A stretch of 63,978 nt of DNA, filler included, from Globobulimina sp. (Eukaryota), in NCBI GenBank assembly GCA_003354225.1. It is 18 parts of 18 records of this genome, joined end to end, with 100 filler letters (N's around TTAATTAATTAA, not from the genome) between each part and the next. Parts side by side here need not be neighbours in the genome. Positions count along the whole stretch, not along the records: positions 56,966 to 60,422 come from PIVH01002746.1; 17 more parts are not named here. One strand, 5' to 3'. Positions 4,603-61,070 of the stretch are shown piece by piece (positions within the stretch are counted from its first letter, which is position 1; each line of letters begins with the position of its first letter). A model generated the notes under the pieces. The model did not search any database. It was given only the letters and a program-made list of their open reading frames with translations, and had not been told where the DNA came from. A program made the translations under genes and the position numbers.

Positions 4603-7014
4603 TTAAGAGCCGCACATAACACAATCGTCCTTATTGTCCAATGAGCACGACATGGCGACCAAATTCTTTTCTTTTTGTTGCTTTAATAATTTGTCTTGTT
4701 GGTCCTTTTCGAGGGCCTCCTGATCCACAGTGAATTTAATGGCATCCGTCGCCGCTTTGGTGCGCAAATAATACATTCCAGTTTTTAGTCCTTTCTTCCA
4801 TCCATAAAAATGCATCGAAGTCAATTTGCCAAAATTTGGATTTTGAATATGAATGTTAAAACTTTGCGACTGGCAAATAAATTGCCCGCGATCCGCCGCC
4901 ATATTAATCAAATTTTTCTGCGAGATCTCCCACACCGTTTTATAAATCGCGCGCAAATCCGACGGAATCTCATCTAACTGCTGCACGCTGCCATTATTTG
5001 CAATCAATTTGTCTTTCAACAAAGGAGTCCAAACGCCCAATTTGATCAAATCCCGCAATAAATGGTCATTAATGCACACAAACTCGCCCGCCAACGTACG
5101 GCGAACGTACACATTCGAAGTATACGGCTCAAAACACTCATTATTGCCCAATATCTGCGAGGTGGACGCCGTCGGCATCGGAGCAATCAATAAACTGTGC
5201 CGTACGCCATATTTCCCGATATCTGCCCGCAACGCATCCCAATCAAACAACTCCTCATTTAATGGCATCTGACTCTCCTTCTCTTCCTTTCTGAACTCGC
5301 GCCATAAATCGAACTGCAACTTTCCTTCACTGATCGGCGAGCCTTTGTACGTCGAATAGGCGCCGTCCACTTTGGCGATCTCCATCGACGCCGTCAATGC
5401 GCCGAAATAGATGGCTTCAAAGATCTCTTTATTTAATTTGCGGGCCTCTTCGCCATCAAATTCGAACCGTAATAGCATAAAAACGTCGGCCAAGCCTTGT
5501 ACACCGATACCAATGGGCCGATGTCGCATATTACTTACTTTCGCTTCCGGCACCGGATAAAAATTCACATCAATCACCTTATTCAAATTGCGAGTGATCA
5601 CTCCCGTGATTTCCACCAAGCGCTCAAAATCGAAGCTCTTCTCCGCCACATTGACGAATTTCGGCAAAGCGATCGACGCCAAATTGCAAACCGCCACTTC
5701 GTCCACGGAGGTATACTCAATAATTTCCGTGCACAAATTGGAGGATTTGATGGTGCCCAAGTTCTTCTGGTTCGACTTCTGATTACAAGCGTCCTTATAC
5801 ACCATATACGGAGTACCGGTCTCGATTTGTGACTGCAAAATGGCGGTCCATAACTCCCGCGCTTTAATCACTTTTTTATACCGCTTCTCCTCCTCATATT
5901 TCATAAACAACGCTTCAAATTTCTCGCCGTATAACTCATGTAATCCCTTGGCTTCATTCGGGCAAAATAGCGGCCAATTTGCGTCCGTCTCCACCCGCTT
6001 CATAAATAAATCCGGAATCCAGAGCCCGAAGAACAAATCCCGTGCACGGTCCTCTTCCTTGCCGGTGTTTTTGCGCAAGTCTAAGAAGCTGAAAATATCC
6101 GCATGCCACGGCTCCAAATACATAGCAAATGAGCCCTTCCTTTTCCCTCCGCCCTGGTCCACGTAACGCGCGGTGTTGTTGAAGACGCGCAACATCGGCA
6201 CGATGCCGTTGGACGTCCCGTTGGTGCCCTTGATGTACGAACCCATGCCGCGGACACAATGGATGGCCACGCCGATGCCGCCCGCATTTTTGCTGATTTG
6301 CGCACACTGTTTGAGCGTGTCATAGATGCCCTCGATGGAGTCGTCCTTCATCGTCAACAGAAAACAGGAGGAGAGCTGAGGGCGTTGCGTGCCGCCGTTG
6401 AACAGCGTAGGCGAAGCATGGGTGAACCACTTCAAACTCATCAAGTTATAGGTCTCGATGGCCGCGTCCAAGTCCTCGTGATGGATGCCCAACGATACCC
6501 TCATTAACATATGTTGCGGCCTCTCGGCGATCACGCCATTCAATTTCAGTAAGTACGATTTGGTCAACGTTTTGATGCCGAAATAATCGTAGCCGTAATC
6601 CCGGCCATACACGATGGCGCCGTTCAACTTCTCTTTGTTTTGCTGTACGATTTTGTAAACGCGATCGGATATTAAGGGGCCGGCTTCATTGCTGCGCGGA
6701 TTGATATAATTGTAGAGGTCGGAGATGACTTCGCTGAATACTTTTTTCGTGTTTTTTTGCAGATTGGAGACTTCGATGCGGGCCGCTAATAAGCCGTAAT
6801 CCGGATGCACGGTCACCATATGGGCAGAGGTTTGCGCCGCCAACTCATCCAATTCGGAGGTCGACACTCCAGAATATACGCCGACGCAGACTTTCCTGGC
6901 AACTGCGATTGGATCCACGTCGTGCGATAAACCCCAGGCTAATTTTTTAATTCGAGACGTGATTTTATCGAAATGGACGGGTTCTTTACGGCCATCGCGC
7001 TTTAACACATACAT
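4603..7014 (-). CDS. RRM1: Ribonucleoside-diphosphate reductase large subunit (class Ia, eukaryotic), intronless
   Basis: ATP-cone start [19 protein letters not shown]. Motifs [54 protein letters not shown] and C-terminal CxxC (CVMCGS). Confidence 0.98.
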
Positions 7015-24834: not shown

Positions 24835-24934
24835 NNNNNNNNNNNNNNNNNNNNNNNNNNNNNNNNNNNNNNNNNNNNTTAATTAATTAANNNNNNNNNN
24901 NNNNNNNNNNNNNNNNNNNNNNNNNNNNNNNNNN

Positions 24935-26770
24935 ATCAGAACTCGTTGTTGCAAAGATCTCTGGAAATCGTATGTCAGACCATTGCAAAACGCTATGTAA
25001 CACTGGATTACAATTGATTGGTTGCGATTTGCTTGGCCATAAACTGCGCCCATACACAGTTGCATTTGGGACTTCCTGTGAGGTTGGTAAAATGCGAAAA
25101 ATGTTCATGAAAGCTTTATGATGTGACTTATTGCCAATTTTAATTGATTGTTGATATAGTGAAAGGAAACCTGTTGAGATTTTGGAATTCGAAGCCGAAC
25201 CTGGTGAACCGAAATCTGTTAAATCTGTAGTGGAATGATTGCTCGATTGTCCAAGCGCTGTGTGATTCTGGGTTGGTGCAGCAATAGCATCTCCATAGCT
25301 TAACATCAAAGCTAGCATTGTCAAGGCTGTACAGAGAACGGTAGTATCGATTTTTGGTACCAATGGTGTTGATTGAGTGGATTGATTTCGATTTATTTTC
25401 GATGTATGCCGTTTGTCTCTTGGCAGCCTTGGTGAAATATCAGCTTGAGTTTCTACAGGAGTTCCTATTTGCTGTTGAACCTGATCATCCACAATGGGAG
25501 CTGCTGTGAGTTGCAGTGAGTTGATTCTCAATGTTCCTATTGTAGGTTGTGGTGACAGACATTGTTGTAAGTTGGTATTTTCCTCTCGCAAGTATTTTAC
25601 TTCATCTGTCAAACTTTGAATTTCTGTCTTCAGTGCTGTCACAAGTTCGTTTTCTTCTGGTAAGTTGTTGTCTGGCTTCATAATGATTGTGTTTATGTGT
25701 GGTGATTGCTCTTGGTTTTCATCATCCTCAGAACATTCATTGTCAGATGGATCTTCATATTGTGAGTTGCGGATTCTAAGTCTGCATTCATTTTTCCAGT
25801 GACCCTGTTTGCCACAATAATGACAAGTAGTTCGTCTTTGTTCATCAATTCCCATATCTTTAAAGGATCTGTGTCCTTGATCATCTCCATAATAATTGTT
25901 GTAAGGTGCTGAATTCATTTGATCATTTGACATGAGCATTTCTTCCAACATTGATTCGATGCGAGCCAGTTTATTGTCAGTATCCTCATCTGTACTTGAA
26001 CCTTGGCCATGTTTGGAAGGTGTGTGTGCACGTTGAACTGCTGCTATCTTAGGTTGTGGATAGTCATTTGCATCGATCATTCTGTTTGCTTCCAGGCAGT
26101 TTGCTTTCGATAATGCTTCATCGAATGTTTGACATTCAAATGCTTGAACCCATTGTCGCAAACTTGGATGTAATTTGCTGGTGAAGTAAGTTAACAACAT
26201 GCCATTACGTTGTTCCTGTGAGAGTTCTGGGTGGGCCAATGTGACTAGTTTTTGAAGCTTTAATGCGAATGTTTGAACTGATTCGCTGTCACTTTGAAGG
26301 ATTACGGCAAGCTTTCCTTGAGCCCATCGCTTTTGTTCTGCAGGCTTTAGTGCATCTCTTAGTGCATTCTTCATTTGGCCATAGTCTGCTTTGACTTCTG
26401 CTGTTAGTTCTTTGTATTTTTGAAGAGCGGATTCTCGTAGATATGCAGGTAGCAATTTAGCTTTTCGTGCATTATCAAAATTGTATGCATTTGCAGTTAA
26501 TTCGAAAATTTCAACCCATGAATTGAAATCATCTGCTTTACGCCCATAAAACTTTGATACTAGGTCATCACCAGAGCCCATTGGACTTTGTGATGCTGCT
26601 TGAAACATGTTTATTTCTGCGTGTGTTTTATTTGATTGAACTCTATTTTGTAAGTCCACAATTGCTTGATTTACGTTTTCAGTACGTTTTTTATTAATTT
26701 GCTTAAGTTTTCCCACGTCTTCTACTAATGTAAGCAAGGTGTCTGCATCAATCTTGGTTTCTAGAGGCAT
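24935..26770 (-). CDS. gag: Gag (capsid + CCHC knuckle) fused to a coiled coil and a signal-peptide-led, possibly Env-like region; no protease or RT seen
   Basis: Motifs FNSWVEIFELTANAYNF...LPAYLRESALQKY, QSDSESVQTFALKLQKL and CHYCGKQGHWKNEC. Later hydrophobic segment LCTALTMLALMLSYGDAIAA. Confidence 0.8.
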
Positions 26771-26949
26771 TAACAGTGACAATTTATGTTGGTATAATAA
26801 CAAGATGTATAACTTAGAAGTTTATAGGTATGACCCTTTGTGTAACCAATTTCTTTTCCAATTATTAAAGTCAACCAAAGGACTATGGATTGGGGTGGAT
26901 CGTTACAGTATTTAAGAATCGGTTTATTTGGGACCTATCTTAAATGAAA

Positions 26950-29452: not shown

Positions 29453-30250
29453 ATGACTGAAGAACAACCAGTAACCGTCACTGCTCAATCCAATAAAGTT
29501 GCTATTGACAACATGTCACTTTCGTTGTCCCGTATTGAAGCTTTACTCTCTCAACAACAACAACGTCCTGTCGTCGCTCAGCCAGTTGAAGTTGTTGAAG
29601 AATCGGACGAACCGCCTAGCAAGAAAGCTAAATTAGTATTTGATGATATTTTGGCGGAGACTTGGTCCACTAAACCATCCGATGCTGCTCTAAAATTATT
29701 GGGCAATCAAAAGAGATATGGTGTTATGTGGTCTTTTCGCAATTTGGTTACCGATTTAGAAGACACTTGCAGTGGTGATCCAGCTTCTATTGACATTTCT
29801 GTCGTTCAAGGTCTTTTGGTTACTCTCAAAACTGAAATGGCCGACCACATGCGTCTTATCCGTATAGCTGATCGCTCTAAAGGTGGCTGGTTGACTGTAG
29901 ATAATTATCAAAATGATGTTTTGGCCCGTGGTAGAGAAGATGAACGCCGTTTGTCTCAAGCTGAACGTACTGCTGTACGTACCATTTCCGATAAGAAACC
30001 TAAACGACCATTTGTTTCTAATTCGTCGTCTGTTGCTCGACCCTTATTTGGTGGTCCCACTGTGCCCTTTCACGGTAGCGCCGGTCAGCGTGCCGCTGGC
30101 CCATCCCACTATGGTGGTTCCCGACGTTCCTTTTCCGGTCCGAGTGTCGACCGACCTTGTCACAGTTGTGGAGCCCCTGACCACTGGTATGGTGTCACAT
30201 GTCCCAATTACTCCAGCGGTGGACGATATTATGGTGCCAAAAAGCAATAA
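29453..30250 (+). CDS. DIRS/PAT-type Gag-like ORF1 with Zn knuckle
   Basis: RLIRIADRSKGGWLTVDNY...EDERRL..AE block typical of PAT-like ORF1, plus CHSCGAPDHWYGVTC. Confidence 0.8.
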   Translation: MTEEQPVTVTAQSNKVAIDNMSLSLSRIEALLSQQQQRPVVAQPVEVVEESDEPPSKKAKLVFDDILAETWSTKPSDAALKLLGNQKRYGVMWSFRNLVTDLEDTCSGDPASIDISVVQGLLVTLKTEMADHMRLIRIADRSKGGWLTVDNYQNDVLARGREDERRLSQAERTAVRTISDKKPKRPFVSNSSSVARPLFGGPTVPFHGSAGQRAAGPSHYGGSRRSFSGPSVDRPCHSCGAPDHWYGVTCPNYSSGGRYYGAKKQ

Positions 30251-31954
30251 TTTGAACTTGAATTCTAATTCTGTTGTTGATAGTGTACTTAAAAGTGAGT
30301 CATCTGTTTCTCGACCAGTATTTAATCCATTATTTTTGTCACAACCAACTTTTGCTGCATGGCTTTTTGATAATTGGCCTTCACTAGAGTTTTACGGTAT
30401 TAAGGGTTCTCTTAAGGAGCATTTAAATGCCTGGATTCGTATCAGGGCCCCACCTTTTGTCTTAGATGTTATTTCTAATGGATACCGTATCCCTTTTCAT
30501 ACTTTTCCGACTTCTTTTTGTCGGCCTAATAATCGATCTTTTCATGATAATTGGGAGTTTGGTATGATGGCGATTGGGCGTTTATTTAAGAACGGTTTTG
30601 CCTGTCTTGTGTCTGAACGTCCCTTAATTGTCAGTCCTTTGCAAGTGGCAATACAACCTAATGGTAAAAAGCGATTAATACTAGATCTTTCCTATGTAAA
30701 TCGTTTCATTTTTAAGCAACATTTCAAAATGGAAGACTTGCGTGTAGCTATGCCTTTTTTTGCTCAGGGTGGTTTTGGTTTTACATTTGATATGACGCAA
30801 GGTTATAATCATGTTAATGTACACCCAGAATTTCAAAAGTATCTGGGTTTCTCCTTCGATTGGGGATCTATCACTTATTATGGTGTCTATACGACTGTAC
30901 CGTTCGGTCTTTCACCTGCTCCATGGCTTTTTACAAAATTATTAAAACCTTGGGTTCGATTTTGGCGTGAGGCCGGTAGTATTGTTTTTGTTTACATCGA
31001 TGATGGTGTGGGTTTTCACTCTACTCGTGCAGGGTGTCAATCTCTCTCGGACCGTGTCTGTTCTGACTTAACCAGTGCTGGCTGGGTTATTAATGAAGCC
31101 AAATCGTTTTGGCGGCCTTCATTTGTTGTCTCATGGCTTGGGTTCACTTTGGATTTTAACCACTTTACAATTAATATACCTGCTGACAAAGTGTCAGCCT
31201 TAATTACTTTAATTCGGACTGAATTGCATTCCAGACATATAACTGCTCGTCAATTATTACGTATTGCTGGCAAATTGGGTTCTTTATCCCTTGTTTATGG
31301 ACCTAAGGCTTTAATCCATGCTAAACCTTTTTATGCACTGGCTGATGCCATTACTTCTGCTGGGAATAGTTATGACTATTTTGCTCCAATCTCATCCCAG
31401 GTTAAAGAATGTTTACGTTTTTGGGCTAAATTTTTACCCCTTGCGAAACACTGTCGTTCCATGACTCATGAGGAACCAGATGTTATCGTTTCATCTGATG
31501 CTAGCGCCTCTGGTGGCGCCACGATTGTGCATTTTTTGCAGTCTGGTGCTATATCACGCCTTTCTGATCATGTAGCCCTTTGTGCTCGGGACCGTGTTTC
31601 CCGTCAAAATCGGCGTTTTTTCGATCCAGGACATACCGATATTGTTCTGTCTCAGCCTGATAAGCCGGGGGTCGGTAACTTGCAAGCCTCTGAGGCTCTT
31701 TCTTGCTCTAGTGAGCTGCCTACGCTTGTGGCGACTGAGGGACCATCTCAAGTGCATTCCAGTGGCTTTTGCCCCGCCAACGTGGCTGTTATTAATTGGC
31801 TTCCTCATGAAGCAACAGACAGCTCTACATGGCGCGAGTTGCGCACTGTCGATTTTGGTCTAATGACCTTCCCTGAAATGTTAAGTAATCATACAGTACT
31901 TTGGCTTTGTGATAATCAAGCTGTTTGTAGCATACTTCGTAAAGGTAGTATGAA
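29913..31954 (+). CDS. DIRS pol: reverse transcriptase + RNase H, overlapping gag in the +1 frame and continuing at 28511
   Basis: Motifs KKRLILDLSYVN, FDMTQGYNHV, PFGLSPAPWLFTK, VYIDDG and WLGF. RNase H motifs SDAS, SSTWREL and CDNQ. Confidence 0.93.
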
Positions 31955-32054
31955 NNNNNNNNNNNNNNNNNNNNNNNNNNNNNNNNNNNNNNNNNNNNTT
32001 AATTAATTAANNNNNNNNNNNNNNNNNNNNNNNNNNNNNNNNNNNNNNNNNNNN

Positions 32055-54736: not shown

Positions 54737-55936
54737 TTACAATACTTTCAATTTAACATCATCAGAATATCCAAATCTCCATTTATTTCGTTCAAATAAT
54801 GCAATAACTTCCTGCATATACCACTTATGGCATTTATCAATCTGTTCTTGAGTTGGATCCTGATCCTGATTATCAATTTTGTTTTGAACACAGTCAGAAT
54901 ACATATTCGCACTAAAAATAGTATGTAAACCAATATCACTCCGCGGTAAAAATGGACTGTACCAATATGGACCAATCGGAAACACAGTCGGTACCTTTTT
55001 CTGATTTAACCATTGTTTCAATTTCCCAATCCATGAATTGGTGCTTGTGGCAAATATATTTTTATAACTCTCACATTCCCCAAATACATAACTGGGCCAT
55101 AATTCATACCCATATTTTAAACAATATTTAATAAATCCTTTCCTTTGTTTGATATAAATTACATTCTCACCATAGCTAAATAAGGTTGCTTCATTAATTC
55201 CGCCCGGCAAAAGTCCAAAAGATACTCCTTTGCTCATCAGCGATTTCATAGAGTTATTATCTGCCGGCAGTACGCAGCCAGTTAACTTTGTAAAAAAGAA
55301 ATTAAAAATGGGTGCTTTACATAAATAAGCAACAGCAAAGCCTGGCTTTGGTATCTTATATTTCATGCTTTCATATGCAGTGATATCTTGTCAGCAAATT
55401 CAAAATGAGTATTTTTATCAGTCACATCCTCCAATGCACGGAATCTCATACCGCAACACAACAAAAAGCCTAAACAAAATATGCCGTGCGGATGGACAGC
55501 GGCTAATATCGGTTGGTGCAAATTACGTTTTTTTGGCTCAGCTTCTACGATTTGCGTACAGCCGCCATCAAAATAAGCAGAGCCAAATCTGATGTATAAC
55601 CTACAAATCCATGGCTGGGGGCGGATGGGAATGAAGTATGGTAATAATATTATAGAGGACAAGATGAGCGCGGTTGTGCTATAATTGGTATAAAATAAGA
55701 ATATAATAAAAAACGGCATGACAAATCCTCCGATCCTTTAATTTGTTTTTTTATTTCAAACATTTGAACAATACAAAGTAATTATAAATGGAATAAAAGT
55801 ACCATGAATAAAGCAATAGCAAAAAAAAGATGCTTCCGCCCATTTTGTTGCACCAATTTTTACCGTGACCCATCCTTGCGACAGACCATAAACCAGAAAA
55901 ATCTGGATTTAGCAAAGAGAGTTTGTCGGTTGACAT
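54737..55936 (-). CDS. DGAT2/MOGAT-family acyltransferase, spliced, one-base frameshift near 55388
   Basis: Motifs HPHG, GLLPGGINEA, RKGFIKYCLKYG, PSYVFGE and HKWYMQEVIALFERNK. N-terminal TM region and an intron at about 55738-55802. Confidence 0.85.
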
Positions 55937-56965: not shown

Positions 56966-57575
56966 ATATTTGCATTTATTTAAACATTTAAAAGGTGAAT
57001 TCTCGATATTCAATGCTGAAACAAAAGAATTTGACAAAATACCTGTCGAGAAATTTATGGTAAATTACAAATTTGCCGTCAATTGTAATACAGGAGCGAT
57101 TGTAATGTTATCTGTTATTATTGCAGCTGTTGTTGTCATCTATAATGTATTGATTGGATCTGAATTGTTTGGTGCTTCTACCGTTTTAATTTGTGTTTGG
57201 GTTTTGATTTTATTGATGATAATATGGCAATTATTGATGATATCATTGAAGTTTTCATCATTGCAATCCAGGCATTTGCGATTCTTACATACACAGCAAT
57301 TATGGGCTCAACAATCAATCTTTGATTTAATATATAAATTGAAAGAAAATGATTATGTGGATGAATTGCACAAAGTTCAAATTGAAAAAAAGATGAATTA
57401 TTTGCAGAAATCAAAAGAATTAATCAATGCAATAACCACACAAATTGAGATTATTGGTTTATCTCCAAAAATTGCAGGAATTCCAATGTCTGGAGTGTTC
57501 GTAAAATTTACATGGTCGTTAGCAATCAGTGCAATCACTGCTGGAATTGGATTTTATTTGAGAAATTTGTCATAA
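56966..57575 (+). CDS. Multi-pass membrane protein, C-terminal part
   Basis: Two TM helices, a long helical loop and a terminal KIAGIPMS...TM helix. Confidence 0.5.
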
Positions 57576-57682
57576 AACTTTGTCTCATCTAGCTATATTT
57601 GTGAGTGTTTTTCAACGTAATTTTAATAATGAAATCACAAGGACGGTTTAATGATGGTTTAAATTAGTAAGGGCGAATTAAA

Positions 57683-59641
57683 TCAGTCATTTTTTCTTTG
57701 TGTTCTTTGCTTTTTTTGAATCAAGGATTTTAATGCATAATTTGACACTAAATTCTTATGTGATAATTTTAAGCCAGTATTTGGTGAAATATCATTACTT
57801 TTAAGCCAATCTTGAATAGCACACCGTTCATAGGTCGCACCATCTGCAATAATTACCGGATCGACCATTATTTCCATTGTTATCGGACAATAAAATTCAG
57901 CATTATCCAAATCACCATTACATTTATCATCCAATCTCTGTTTCTTTGTTGGCGGTTCCAATTTTCTATCATCATCATCACTTAATTTACGTTTTCGTGA
58001 GTTGTTATTATTTGCATTATTTGAATTATTATTATTATTATCATATTTGCTCTCATCTGCTTCATCCAACGCAATATTAAATTGTATTCCATCTTGCTGT
58101 GCTACAAATTTTAATGTTTTTAATTCATTTATTAATGTCGGATCATAACAATTTGTCATTTCCAACACAAATTTATCAATAAATTCATCAAACCGATAAC
58201 TGCCATAACTCTCAAACAATTCCATCTGTTCTTTATTTGGGTTCATTGTTTTTCTTAATTTAACATAATCATTCACAAAATCTGTATATTTTATCAATAA
58301 AACAGCCTTTCGAATTCCTACATTCTCAAATATCTCATTCTTAGCCAATGTACCCATATCTTTTTCGAAATAATTCCTCTGTGTAATACCATTCATGTCA
58401 TCCCATTCAACTTTAATTTTAAGCAAATTATCTTTAAATCCGCTTTTTAATTTAAATAACAATAAACCAGATCGAATATCATTTTTATCATTACAATGTG
58501 ATGCAAAACATGTTATTTGTTTCGCACTTTTCGCATTCTCCAAATTATTGATTTCTGGACTCCCAAATCCTTTATCAATATAATGATCGCTGACAATGGT
58601 TAATGTTGCATTAAATGCAACCGATGTAACCATAAAATCGAATTCCTGATTGACAATCTCTGCAAAATCATCAGCATTCATAATATTACAATAATTACAT
58701 CCCATGGAACTTGATACATTTTCAATTACTTCGCCGCCTAAATCCAAGCCAATGCCAGCAACACTCGTAAATACATTATCGTGTAAGCTATGGTCATGCA
58801 CCAATTTACTAAATTCTTTGCCATCCGAATCAGTCACAAGCATATCTGTTAAAAACCATATTCTTTTATTTGTCGCATTCTCCTTTAAACCGGATAACAG
58901 TTCAAAAGCTTTGTTATATGCCGGCGTTATAGCAGTGCCACCATTTCCTTTCAATTTATTTATTGCGCCAATTAATTCTTCTTTTTTGCTTTTGGTATCG
59001 GCCCATTTTTGAATATCATGGAGTACAGAGACGGTGTCATTAAATACAATAAAACCAAAATAATCATTGTCATGAATTTGTTCTAAGAATAGAGATAACA
59101 CTTTCTTTGCTACAGTTATTCGAGAATCTAAATTTTTTTTCATATTATAATTAAAATTGGTATCATCAACATCGAAGCCAAAACTCATACTGCCGGAAAT
59201 ATCCAATACAAAAACAAATTGCAAATTAGGTCGTTTGTGTTTATCCATTCCTTTAAGTCCATCATATTTAGAGGCACCATGCCATCCAAACCAATATTCA
59301 TCTGATTTTTGTTCATAATCAAATGTTTTTGCAATGGTTATATTTGATTCATACATTTTATCAATTTCAGGTTGCTTGTTTTCATCTTTTGCTTGGCTGA
59401 AACTAAAATAATGCGCATATAGACTTGATTCATATGTTATGTTGTAATTGTAATTCATTACAGTAACATCATTATTTTCTTCTGGTTCATCATCTAAACA
59501 CACAGTACCCGGTTTATAATGATGGGGTTTTTTGACCCCACCCATTGATGGTGCAGATTTTCTCGCTGCTTTGGTTGCTAATTGTTTCCTCGGAGCTGCG
59601 CCTCCTGAACTTTTTCTAGCTGTTTGCCGTGTTCGTGCCAT
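57683..59641 (-). CDS. Histone H3 N-tail (residues 1-48) fused to a vWA domain and a C-terminal U-box
   Basis: N-terminus [49 protein letters not shown]. vWA MIDAS motifs [12 protein letters not shown] and FLTD. U-box [31 protein letters not shown]...SPNT...[11 protein letters not shown]. One uninterrupted ORF. Confidence 0.9.
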
Positions 59642-59769
59642 TCGTTTCAAATTGGTTGACGGACTTGACTTGACTGTTGACACTGAAGAATGAGGAGATG
59701 TAGGAAGTGGAAGAAAGTTTTTAAAAGTGTATTTTATATATTTATTTTATTGTGAATTAATAATTAATT

Positions 59770-60250
59770 TTAGTACACAGGAATAACAACACAGCCATAT
59801 ATACAGACAAGAATACACACATGTGCTTTTGTTAACCTTTTACAATAATAAACAAAAGGAAACATGATATTATAATTTAAAACACATTTACAAAATTGTA
59901 TGGTTACACAATAAAACGCGAATTCAACCAGCGTTGCAATGGACAAATAAGAGATGACTAAGTTGGATGATGCTTTATCATCCAATTGACCCGAATACAT
60001 TTTGAAACATAGTTTATAATCCAACGCAAAAAACAATCCGCTAAAGACAGCACACCATAATTTAACCACTAAATCCATTGATAACCGATCTCTCCAAATA
60101 CCCAAAGTAGAATCATAGCCATCATGTAAAACATGTAAATATGTATAATATCTTATAATTATCTCATTTGACCGCCAATAATATATTTCATGATATCGCA
60201 CAATGACAGCGAAAAATTCCCATAACAAATGAGCTGACAATGTCAACGAA
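59770..60250 (-). CDS. Hypothetical membrane protein fragment; its upstream part appears chimeric
   Basis: AT-rich hydrophobic ORF. The GC-rich upstream part resembles unrelated bacterial fragments. Confidence 0.3.
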
Positions 60251-60522
60251 AATTGTGTGACTGTCGGCGCATGAAAAACAGATATAACCGGAAGGTTCTT
60301 ACCCATAACTTTGTTAATCTCAGATATTAACGGCACAGCCAGCAGTGAGGAACCGCGCGAGTAAAGTACGTGACCCGAGTTGACATACACGGCGCGGCTT
60401 CCGCCTTCGACGATGACGCGATNNNNNNNNNNNNNNNNNNNNNNNNNNNNNNNNNNNNNNNNNNNNTTAATTAATTAANNNNNNNNNNNNNNNNNNNNNN
60501 NNNNNNNNNNNNNNNNNNNNNN

Positions 60523-61070
60523 GTGCATTACCACCACAATCACTATAATCTGTGGAATAAACACTTCCATTTTCTGATAAAATGATGGAATAAGCATCAG
60601 CACATTGTATTTGTTTAATATTTCCATATTTCCATTGAATTCGACATATTTTATATTGATTTCCTTCACTGCCAATTCCAAGTTGGAATGTCTCATTTCG
60701 TCCAAATGCATAAATATTTTCTCATTTGTTACTATGAAGGTATGATATGATATGAAAACAAAACAGGATTACAGAATATTTTCGATATTTTAAACTGATT
60801 CAATCCATTCATAACTGATAATTTCTCCAATTTCTCTCCTTTACTTTTTTCCTGTAAACAACTGCCATATTTATTATTTCCAGCTGCATAAAACGTATCT
60901 TTATCATCTCTGTAAATTGTAAATTCATCACCATTAAATATTTGAGTTACATTGATCCGATGACTCCATGTTAATGCACTTAATTCTTCTATTTGACGAG
61001 AATTACCATCACCGAATTCACCTTCGTTATTATCACCAACAGCATATACAATATTAGCTTTGGCAGCCAT
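60523..61070 (-). pseudogene. RCC1-repeat gene with two frameshifts
   Basis: VYAVGDNNEGEFGDG and FYAAGNNKYGSC are followed by a 5-nt ATCAT duplication (about 60742-60751) and a 1-nt shift (about 60722) before IYAFGRNETFQLGIG resumes in another frame. Confidence 0.65.

Follow-up and report, generated by a model that had tools for sequence, protein, structure and literature searches.

A histone H3 tail at the head of a vWA/U-box protein from Globobulimina sp.: a widespread eukaryotic family and a possible histone mimic

The stretch of DNA considered here (the window) is 63,978 nucleotides long, filler included, and consists of 18 joined parts of assembly GCA_003354225.1 from Globobulimina sp. 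It harbored, within record PIVH01002746.1, a gene whose product begins like histone H3 and ends like a ubiquitin ligase. The coding sequence (57683..59641, minus strand) is a single exon of 652 codons plus a stop codon, and aligned over its full length to its relative P0002. The minus-strand frame was open over 57683-59683, from a GTG at 59683; the natural start was the ATG at 59641, the stop codon lay at 57683-57685, and the 652 amino acids in between were uninterrupted. As judged from its sequence, the gene encodes a putative ubiquitin ligase that displays a genuine H3 tail as its first 48 residues.

The histone part comprised protein residues 1-49 (Met, then H3 A1-L48; 59495..59641, minus strand) and is predicted to be disordered, residues 4-54 having a predicted local distance difference test score (pLDDT) below 50 in AlphaFold2 (AF2). 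In a phmmer search of the PDB, residues 1-51 aligned to residues 1-51 of solved H3 chains (best 9gmk_A, E 1.1e-20); 155 distinct PDB sequences matched at E <= 0.01, and all 60 rows listed were H3 chains. A full H3 taken from hit P0032 was compared by tblastn with the whole window and gave a sole match at 59641-59495, equivalent to H3 1-49 (85.7% identity, E 2.7e-25). This search returned nothing for the histone fold at E < 1 anywhere in the window, the core histone family PF00125 had no Pfam match in the window protein, and the PDB H3 chains reached residue 51 only. Since full H3 matched in its tail part alone, the window protein is a tail without a histone. Against canonical H3, the tail displayed the substitutions K4R, T11S, K14A, A31S, T32M, R40H, R42K and A47C, and retained K9, S10, K18, K23, K27, S28 and K36. 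With Arg at position 4, Ala at position 14 and the other key residues kept, it could imitate the K9, K27 and K36 sites, not K4 methylation or K14 acetylation. The tail (0.265) and the remainder of the gene (0.232) were alike in third-position GC.

The features that follow the tail were all encoded on the same minus strand. An acidic spacer (DDEPEENND) led into an N-terminal strand region (59222..59494; alignment and AF2 model), which carried the family motif Y-E-S-S-x-Y-A-H-Y-F at residues 69-79, with F79 being nearly invariant. The vWA domain (residues 141-337; 58631..59221) was delimited by Pfam, invariant columns and structure alignment; both VWA_2 (4.5e-11 at 143-266) and VWA (9.4e-08 at 143-330) exceeded their curated cut-offs. 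Its metal ion-dependent adhesion site (MIDAS) consisted of the DxSxS motif (59189-59203), T236 (58934-58936) and D266 (58844-58846); residues D147, S149, S151, T236 and D266 were all present, and they were invariant in the 32-sequence family alignment. A beta-sandwich domain (residues 340-428; 58358..58624), recognized from the AF2 model and structural matches and covered by no Pfam family, preceded a helical domain (residues 441-516; 58094..58321), likewise drawn from the AF2 model, for which the aligned ranges in 4fx5, 8s05 and Sec24 extend to residues 511-520. The linker (residues 517-577; 57911..58093) is predicted to be disordered from the model and its sequence, and contained an Asn-rich run at 535-547 ahead of a bipartite motif resembling a nuclear localization signal (NLS), RKRKL (549-553)...KKQR (565-568), at 57938-57997. 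The U-box domain closed the protein (residues 578-652; 57686..57910; AF2 model and Pfam match at 582-643, E 7.4e-17, 61.7 bits against a cut-off of 21.4). The AF2 model, built from a 110-sequence alignment, had a mean pLDDT of 82.8 and a predicted template modelling score of 0.73; strands 98-123, vWA 141-337, beta-sandwich 340-428, helices 441-516 and U-box 578-651 were ordered, pLDDT being below 50 at linker residues 540-564 and 92-97 at U-box residues 581-640.

The initial annotation of this locus had described one intron-free, in-frame open reading frame (ORF) running from an H3 tail, which stops ahead of the histone fold, through a MIDAS-bearing vWA domain and a basic NLS-like linker to a U-box. 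This architecture was confirmed in every part by the ORF, Pfam and tblastn results together with the invariant MIDAS columns and the linker motif, and the accompanying lists of substituted and retained tail residues were exact against the alignments.

Contigs from public sequencing runs provided an independent view of the locus. Runs matching the stretch amounted to eight rows from four studies, and four runs were compared over 57500-59900 at the level of contigs only. The region around 59480-59520, which the initial annotation had singled out for verification, was spanned in three studies, where single contigs crossed the junction between tail and vWA part (X1, 59106-59719; X3, 57971-59655; X6, 58683-59661). 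The X3 contig terminated in Illumina adapter, and X6 showed 32 differences from the window. Among the listed differences, X6 displayed 20 synonymous and 12 non-synonymous codon changes, 11 further ones being left out of these counts. Within tail residues 1-32 both strain changes were synonymous (R18 and A22); the non-synonymous tail changes were M33K (X6), M33A (X3) and H41R, the latter going back to the canonical R40. Between strains, the gene thus sampled appears to be under ordinary purifying selection. X3 and X6 had no cover at about 59662-59807 and restarted at 59808/59822, X1 continuing to 59719; the contig ends of X3 and X6 (59655..59661, minus strand, 14-20 nt upstream of the ATG) hint, if weakly, at the 5' end of a transcript. 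A contig path seen in X1 and X3 departed at 58000, within the Asn-rich linker, into unrelated sequence. As an isoform it was set aside, in-frame stops being encountered when the frame of the gene was continued, and it is probably a different locus sharing a 30-mer.

Relatives of the protein were numerous. The closest was P0002, from the EukProt Nonionella stella set (a foraminiferal transcriptome), which matched over its full length at 63% identity and 99% coverage and displayed a 42-residue H3 tail and a U-box, with core and linker motif as in the window protein. In the family alignment, 29 of 32 sequences started with MART[KR]QTARKSTGGKAPRK, distant relatives of 25-36% identity included. Because this first query contained the tail, the search was repeated without it: residues 55-575 (neither tail nor U-box) were compared by phmmer with 1.84 billion representatives, giving 1029 matches at E <= 1e-3 and 54 at E <= 1e-30. 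The pattern AR[TS][KR]Q[TS]AR was found in 28 of the best 150 of these 1029 matches, starting at residue 2 (26 sequences), 3 (one) or 25 (one), and further matches displayed degenerate tails, such as MGRTRQTARIQ and MGHTQQTACKS.

A FastTree phylogeny of the tail-less core (110 rows, 468 columns; unrooted, with local support values only) separated three groups. Group I comprised 36 rows, 32 of them with the tail, and group II, which holds the window protein, 33 rows, 23 of them with the tail. Group III was bacterial-like; none of its 41 rows carried the tail, and their N-termini were mostly signal-peptide or membrane-like. The branch splitting group III from groups I and II had a support of 99, and the window protein was nested in one clade with P0002, P0003 and P0138. 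The tail was thus present in 55 of the 69 rows of groups I and II. Among the 14 rows without it, four were fragments lacking an initial Met, three began at an internal MTSQQ, three, short or 5'-partial gene calls, seemingly started at a point downstream of it, and in four the tail was degenerate or shortened at its N-terminal side. With a root inside the bacterial-like group, these data would be explained by a single old fusion and later retention. In group I, the U-box clade (e.g. P0010, P0012, P0018 and P0162), residues ~27-40 formed a non-histone motif of approximately [SQ]F[RK]x[FY]MTSQQxxG right after H3 residue 26, and several truncated gene calls began at the Met of its MTSQQ.

Members were found in Amoebozoa (Rhizamoeba, Cavostelium, Protostelium), in the mucoromycote fungus Jimgerdemannia, in a choanoflagellate (Acanthoecidae sp.), in the sponge Sycon, in the rotifer Rotaria and in data derived from Rhizaria (Nonionella). 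The nearest ESM Atlas cluster (score 0.95) combined VWA_2 and U-box and was labelled mostly Haptophyta. Several members were TRINITY transcripts, so the fusion is present in the mRNA of those species. The claim of the initial annotation that the fusion is old and not an artefact was strongly supported, full-length relatives with the same architecture being encountered in transcriptomes, and it can be extended to a family spread over several eukaryotic supergroups. All three traits of this family were displayed by the window protein, i.e. an N-terminal H3 tail, a core of MIDAS-bearing vWA, beta-sandwich and helical domains, and a C-terminal E3 domain. The last of these varied among members: Pfam detected a U-box in 25 and a RING of the zf-C3HC4_3 type in 10 of 57 tail-bearing members, and among the 69 rows that make up groups I and II phmmer gave 29 with a U-box, 11 with a RING and 29 with neither, some of the latter being fragments. 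The E3 module thus appears conserved in function and swapped in domain type. The NLS-like linker motif recurred within the clade of the window protein, in P0002, P0003, P0006 and P0009. NCBI records of members bear names such as 'unnamed protein product', 'uncharacterized protein' and 'hypothetical protein', and the family is widespread in eukaryotes and apparently undescribed.

Conservation of the tail was counted over the 55 members with a readable tail register. Positions 1-8 were nearly invariant (A1 50, R2 54, T3 53, K4 42 plus 12 with Arg, Q5 55, T6 54, A7 54, R8 54), followed by S10 (48), G12 (50), G13 (52), K14 (41), A15 (49), P16 (45), R17 (47) and K18 (38, plus nine with Arg). Conservation faded after about residue 21 (T22 26, K23 21, R26 26, K27 13). 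The tail began at residue 2 in 52 of the 55, as would be expected if the N-terminus has to be free. The window protein displayed the longest H3 match of the family (1-48), with P0002 coming next (1-42) and most members ending at 26-28. These counts indicate purifying selection on the N-terminal tail in eukaryotes that are only very distantly related.

K4R was found in both the window protein and P0002; with these two counted, it occurred in 11 of the 23 group II rows that bear the tail, and in one of 32 in group I. The initial annotation had set K4R and K14A against the marks of active chromatin, and this reading applies to the clade only in part, K4R being recurrent in the clade and K14A being absent even from the closest relative, P0002. 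Position 9 was Lys in 37 members, Arg in four and hydrophobic (M/L/V/I/F/C) in 10, namely P0123, P0126, P0128, P0129, P0130, P0135, P0136, P0137, P0169 and P0200. The hydrophobic residues were encountered in nine of the 23 tail-bearing rows of group II and in one of 32 of group I, and seven of the nine group II proteins had no detectable E3 domain. Such sequences look like natural tails of the K-to-M style.

Some group II members also carried an H4 tail segment after the H3 tail. It was clearest in P0137/P0279 (H4 4-27, with the 17 residues LGKGGAKRHRKVLRDNI unchanged), was likewise found in P0136 and P0126 (with cluster mates P0275 and P0276), and was weaker in P0011. The H4 alignment scores of 69-98 compared with a maximum of 36 over 192 shuffled N-termini, and residues 56-74 of P0137 matched an H4K20me1 peptide chain at E 1.2e-4. 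By this comparison, the H3+H4 members appear to display two histone tails in tandem; some of them retained the H3 alphaN stretch PHRYRPGSVALREIR. A further resemblance concerned three bacterial-like proteins (P0036, P0186 and P0237), in which the core start GGAKD(I/V)N(T/S)FR(D/E)NIK at residues ~85-113 resembled H4 14-27 (GGAKRHRKVLRDNI), with scores of 45-49 against the shuffle maximum of 36. This likeness may be due to chance, to convergence or to a seed of the H4-like segment. Extra copies of KQTAR[KR], the motif of the H3 K9 region, were seen at the C-terminus of P0142 (residues 693-707, RKQTARKQTARKQTARK) and of P0017 (residues 633-641, TRTKQTARR).

The fold of the core was compared with solved structures. 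The vWA domain of the window protein matched solved vWA domains at Z ~21 (VIA-align), with TFIIH p44 and RPN10 at Z 20-21 and with Ku and INTS13/14 among the nuclear matches. For the core as a whole, the matches were ITIH1 (6fpy_A, Z 20.8), 4fx5 (Z 20.1), archaeal ArnB (8s05_B, Z 19.4) and Sec24 (Z 17), and Foldseek returned E values from 4e-17 (ArnAB) to 1e-11. With ArnB, the Sec23-Sec24 trunk, ITIH1 and 4fx5, it shared the vWA, beta-sandwich and helical arrangement over ~345-351 aligned residues; as sequence identity to ArnB, Sec24, ITIH1 and 4fx5 was 9-16%, this is taken as a likeness of fold and not as membership. Trunk, barrel and helical parts were included in the Sec24 alignment, and zinc finger, gelsolin and VIT had no Pfam match in the window protein. 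Sec23/24 are not known to carry a MIDAS, in contrast to the window protein, in which it is complete. A vWA domain joined to a RING-type E3 module also occurs in plant RGLG (vWA/copine with a C-terminal RING), in WAV3 (RING and vWA) and in TFIIH p44/Ssl1 (vWA with a RING-like finger), a likeness that concerns the vWA domain and the E3 module. Unlike the present family, these proteins have no histone tail; moreover, WAV3 differs in domain order and RGLG in vWA subtype. Copine (PF07002) had no Pfam match at E <= 0.1 in the window protein, whose C-terminal domain is a U-box, so it is not of the RGLG type. Streptophyte RING-vWA clusters scored 0.83 in the ESM Atlas.

Elsewhere, the window encoded the large subunit of ribonucleotide reductase, WD40 proteins, Med14, a reverse transcriptase, a kinase, a DAGAT protein and an RCC1-like protein, and its gene content is eukaryotic in character. 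Neighbouring ORFs (RCC1-like, DAGAT, kinase and unknowns) gave no functional clue to the ligase. The RCC1-like ORF (60732-61070) and the DAGAT ORF (54737-55366) each covered part of its Pfam model only, so that genes here can have introns, unlike the ligase gene. An assembly gap, seen as a run of N at ~60475-60520, interrupted an ORF located immediately upstream of the neighbouring gene. At 4603-7014 (minus strand), in a GC-richer stretch (0.41-0.43), the class I ribonucleotide reductase large subunit was intact, with relatives at 80-91% identity; the nearest named ones were chlorarachniophytes at 69-73%, which, together with the foraminiferal origin of the closest ligase relative, points to a source that is probably rhizarian. 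A probable retroelement is formed by ORFs at 24887-26803 (minus strand) and 29913-32006 (plus strand), which encode a CCHC zinc knuckle and a reverse transcriptase domain in a stretch of GC 0.35-0.42 against ~0.30.

The reading of the tail that we favour, with a probability of about one half, is that it serves as a pseudo-substrate or bait for readers, writers and erasers of the H3 tail and couples them to an E3 ligase. Removal of the initial Met would expose a free A1-R2-T3, and this terminus together with the next ~20 residues would be recognized by H3-tail-binding proteins, candidate partners being PHD, WD40 and chromodomain readers, SET-domain methyltransferases, demethylases and acetyltransferases. 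The tail would thus be a bait, or pseudo-substrate, in soluble form; being disordered, it would tether its partner beside the U-box, which in turn would recruit a charged E2, and the partner or its neighbours would become ubiquitylated; alternatively, the same contacts may deliver the ligase to chromatin rich in such readers. The core of MIDAS-bearing vWA, beta-sandwich and helical domains may offer a second, metal-dependent protein-binding surface.

The conservation pattern fits the bait idea and points to residues 1-21 and a free N-terminus, rather than to K27 and K36, as the part that would be recognized. PHD fingers require Met removal, the R2 groove and the K4 cage (in part from PMC8166343), and K-to-M histones, like EZHIP, act on SET-domain methyltransferases by blocking or sequestering them (in part from 10.1101/585729 and PMC8167812). 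Recognition by reader or enzyme pockets rather than through bulk charge is suggested by the invariance of A1-R8 together with the free N-terminus, by the exchange of K9 for residues of the methyltransferase-blocking kind, and by the co-display of H4 tails in some relatives. A wider and more tentative proposal, which we consider rather unlikely as a whole, is that the family forms a dedicated eukaryotic display of histone tails, in which a vWA scaffold that bears H3 or H3 plus H4 tails, and in some cases an E3 domain as well, would trap histone-tail enzymes, endogenous or pathogen-encoded, and so titrate or destroy them. K9M/L/V/I forms would then be evolved inhibitors of H3K9 methyltransferases, independent of oncohistones, and the U-box form of the window would be the degradative version.

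Several points weigh against the bait idea. No E3 domain was found in 29 of the 69 clade rows, and since some of these are apparently full length, the role of the tail is not strictly dependent on a ligase. In the window protein itself, K4R and K14A remove two of the best-known H3 sites, and AF2 leaves the tail unplaced (pLDDT < 50), which gives structural support in neither direction. No run was recorded as RNA, and for expression of the window copy the contig ends are a weak hint. H3 and H4 tails are, moreover, themselves karyopherin-dependent import signals; the conserved length of ~26 residues is near the size of the H3 NLS, and the added H4 tails would also fit import.

These last points lead to the main rival, that the tail is kept as a signal for histone import and chaperone handling, with the ligase riding along with, monitoring or regulating the H3-H4 supply (importins, HAT1/RbAp-type factors) and the vWA core picking substrates. 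It is the less probable of the two by a clear step. Conservation up to about residue 26-28 in most members corresponds to that NLS size, and H3 and H4, whose tails are co-displayed in some relatives, are imported together. On the other hand, a bipartite NLS-like motif is already present in the linker and conserved in the clade of the window protein, so that nuclear import need not rely on the tail. The invariance of residues 1-8 and the strict N-terminal position are unlike the needs of karyopherin binding (basic residues around K14-K23), K14 (41/55) and K23 (21/55) are among the less conserved positions, and the hydrophobic replacements of K9 have no obvious meaning for import.

It is improbable, in our judgement, that the ligase makes its own ubiquitylated H3 mimic, modifying its tail lysines (K18, K23 and others) and thereby activating, recruiting or titrating readers of ubiquitylated H3. 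PAF15 acts in this way on UHRF1/DNMT1, as does H3K14ub on Clr4. The layout of the protein would permit it, since a single chain with disordered connecting segments carries both an E3 domain and an H3 tail that contains lysines; position 18 was K or R in 47 of 55 members, and a published title links H3K9M, H3K14 ubiquitylation and Clr4 sequestration (PMC8167812). By contrast, the window protein has Ala at position 14, conservation of K14 and K23 was only moderate (41 and 21 of 55 members), and the tail was kept in members without an E3 domain.

A similarly low probability is assigned to an integrated decoy in host-pathogen conflict, in which the tail would imitate host H3 so that histone-tail effectors of pathogens or viruses (SET methyltransferases, proteases, acetyltransferases) engage the ligase and get tagged. 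The named members are phagotrophs and filter feeders exposed to intracellular bacteria and giant viruses; invariant residues 1-8 would fit a decoy tracking an invariant target, and hydrophobic K9 variants would be good traps. A scan of IMG/VR gave 44 loci, ~39 of which read as ordinary H3 histones, the rest being short reads-through, cut ORFs and two contigs with H3-like tails on non-histone ORFs. In L034 (3001-3507, plus strand; a 130-kb contig) the tail MARTKKTARPSVGGKAPRTHLATK was followed by ankyrin repeats (Ank_2, 9.8e-30), and in L040 (3001-3435, plus strand) H3 1-21 was followed by an unrelated region of 120 residues, so that tail display is not confined to the vWA family and does occur in a viral setting. 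Against a decoy stand the lack of any sign of induction, rapid evolution or immune-gene linkage, the neighbours being ordinary genes, and the ordinary purifying selection between strains. No relative of the vWA core was found by tblastn in the 44 viral loci, which were picked by the tail pattern itself and are thus not informative on viral family members. Finally, an assembly or amplification chimera, a pseudogene or a mis-joined H3 gene, which a histone tail on an unrelated enzyme a priori suggests and which N runs elsewhere in the window might favour, is already refuted as far as the data allow by the contigs of three studies across the junction, the identical architecture in dozens of independent assemblies and transcriptomes, the uninterrupted frame of 652 codons, in which the strains differ mostly at synonymous sites, and the absence of a histone fold from the window (tblastn).

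With the bait idea as the preferred reading, the family can be set beside known cases of mimicry. PAF15, the SNAG domain of Snail/GFI1, the automethylation motif of G9a and the ARSK motif of influenza NS1 are short H3-like motifs that engage UHRF1, LSD1, HP1 or PAF1/CHD1; to our knowledge, all are convergent, and none is a full tail or is fused to a ligase domain of its own. EZHIP mimics K27M by means of a short motif in its interior and is not known to carry an E3 domain. The family resembles K-to-M oncohistones and EZHIP in the hydrophobic residue at a target lysine (K9) in 10 of 55 members; unlike them, the window protein keeps K9. The nearest known concept is that of the human H3 N-terminal mimicry proteins (H3TMs), non-histone proteins whose N-termini mimic H3 A1-R2-T3-K4 after Met removal, bind PHD/Tudor readers and NuRD, and can be methylated at K4 (Chen et al. 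2021, PMC8166343). Mimicry at the N-terminus following Met removal is common to both. H3TMs share about four residues by convergence, in contrast to the 26-48 H3-homologous residues found here, which are fused to an E3 domain and conserved across supergroups. They are defined there by a removable Met, R2 and K4 (PMC8166343); the window protein displayed M-A-R-T but had Arg at position 4, and K4 was present in 42 of 55 relatives. Full-text searches, whose coverage did not extend to most subscription journals and supplementary domain tables, gave no account of a vWA/U-box or RING protein headed by an H3 tail.

Histone mimicry is not known to go beyond short motifs that arose by convergence in a few proteins of animals and viruses. 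The present enzyme family, by contrast, keeps an H3-homologous tail of 26-48 residues at its N-terminus in groups as far apart as Amoebozoa, fungi, animals, choanoflagellates and Rhizaria. Compared with H3TMs, the new aspect would be that the mimic is a complete, H3-homologous tail joined to an E3 ligase, and that the family has conserved this trait. The finding raises the questions of whether histone writers, erasers and readers are regulated by decoy tails, whether ubiquitylation is coupled in trans to tail recognition, and whether inhibition of the K-to-M type has evolved naturally. The tail profile of the family is a natural mutational scan of the H3 residues that matter off the nucleosome, and such natural pseudo-substrates would be ready reagents for chromatin enzymology in little-studied eukaryotes.

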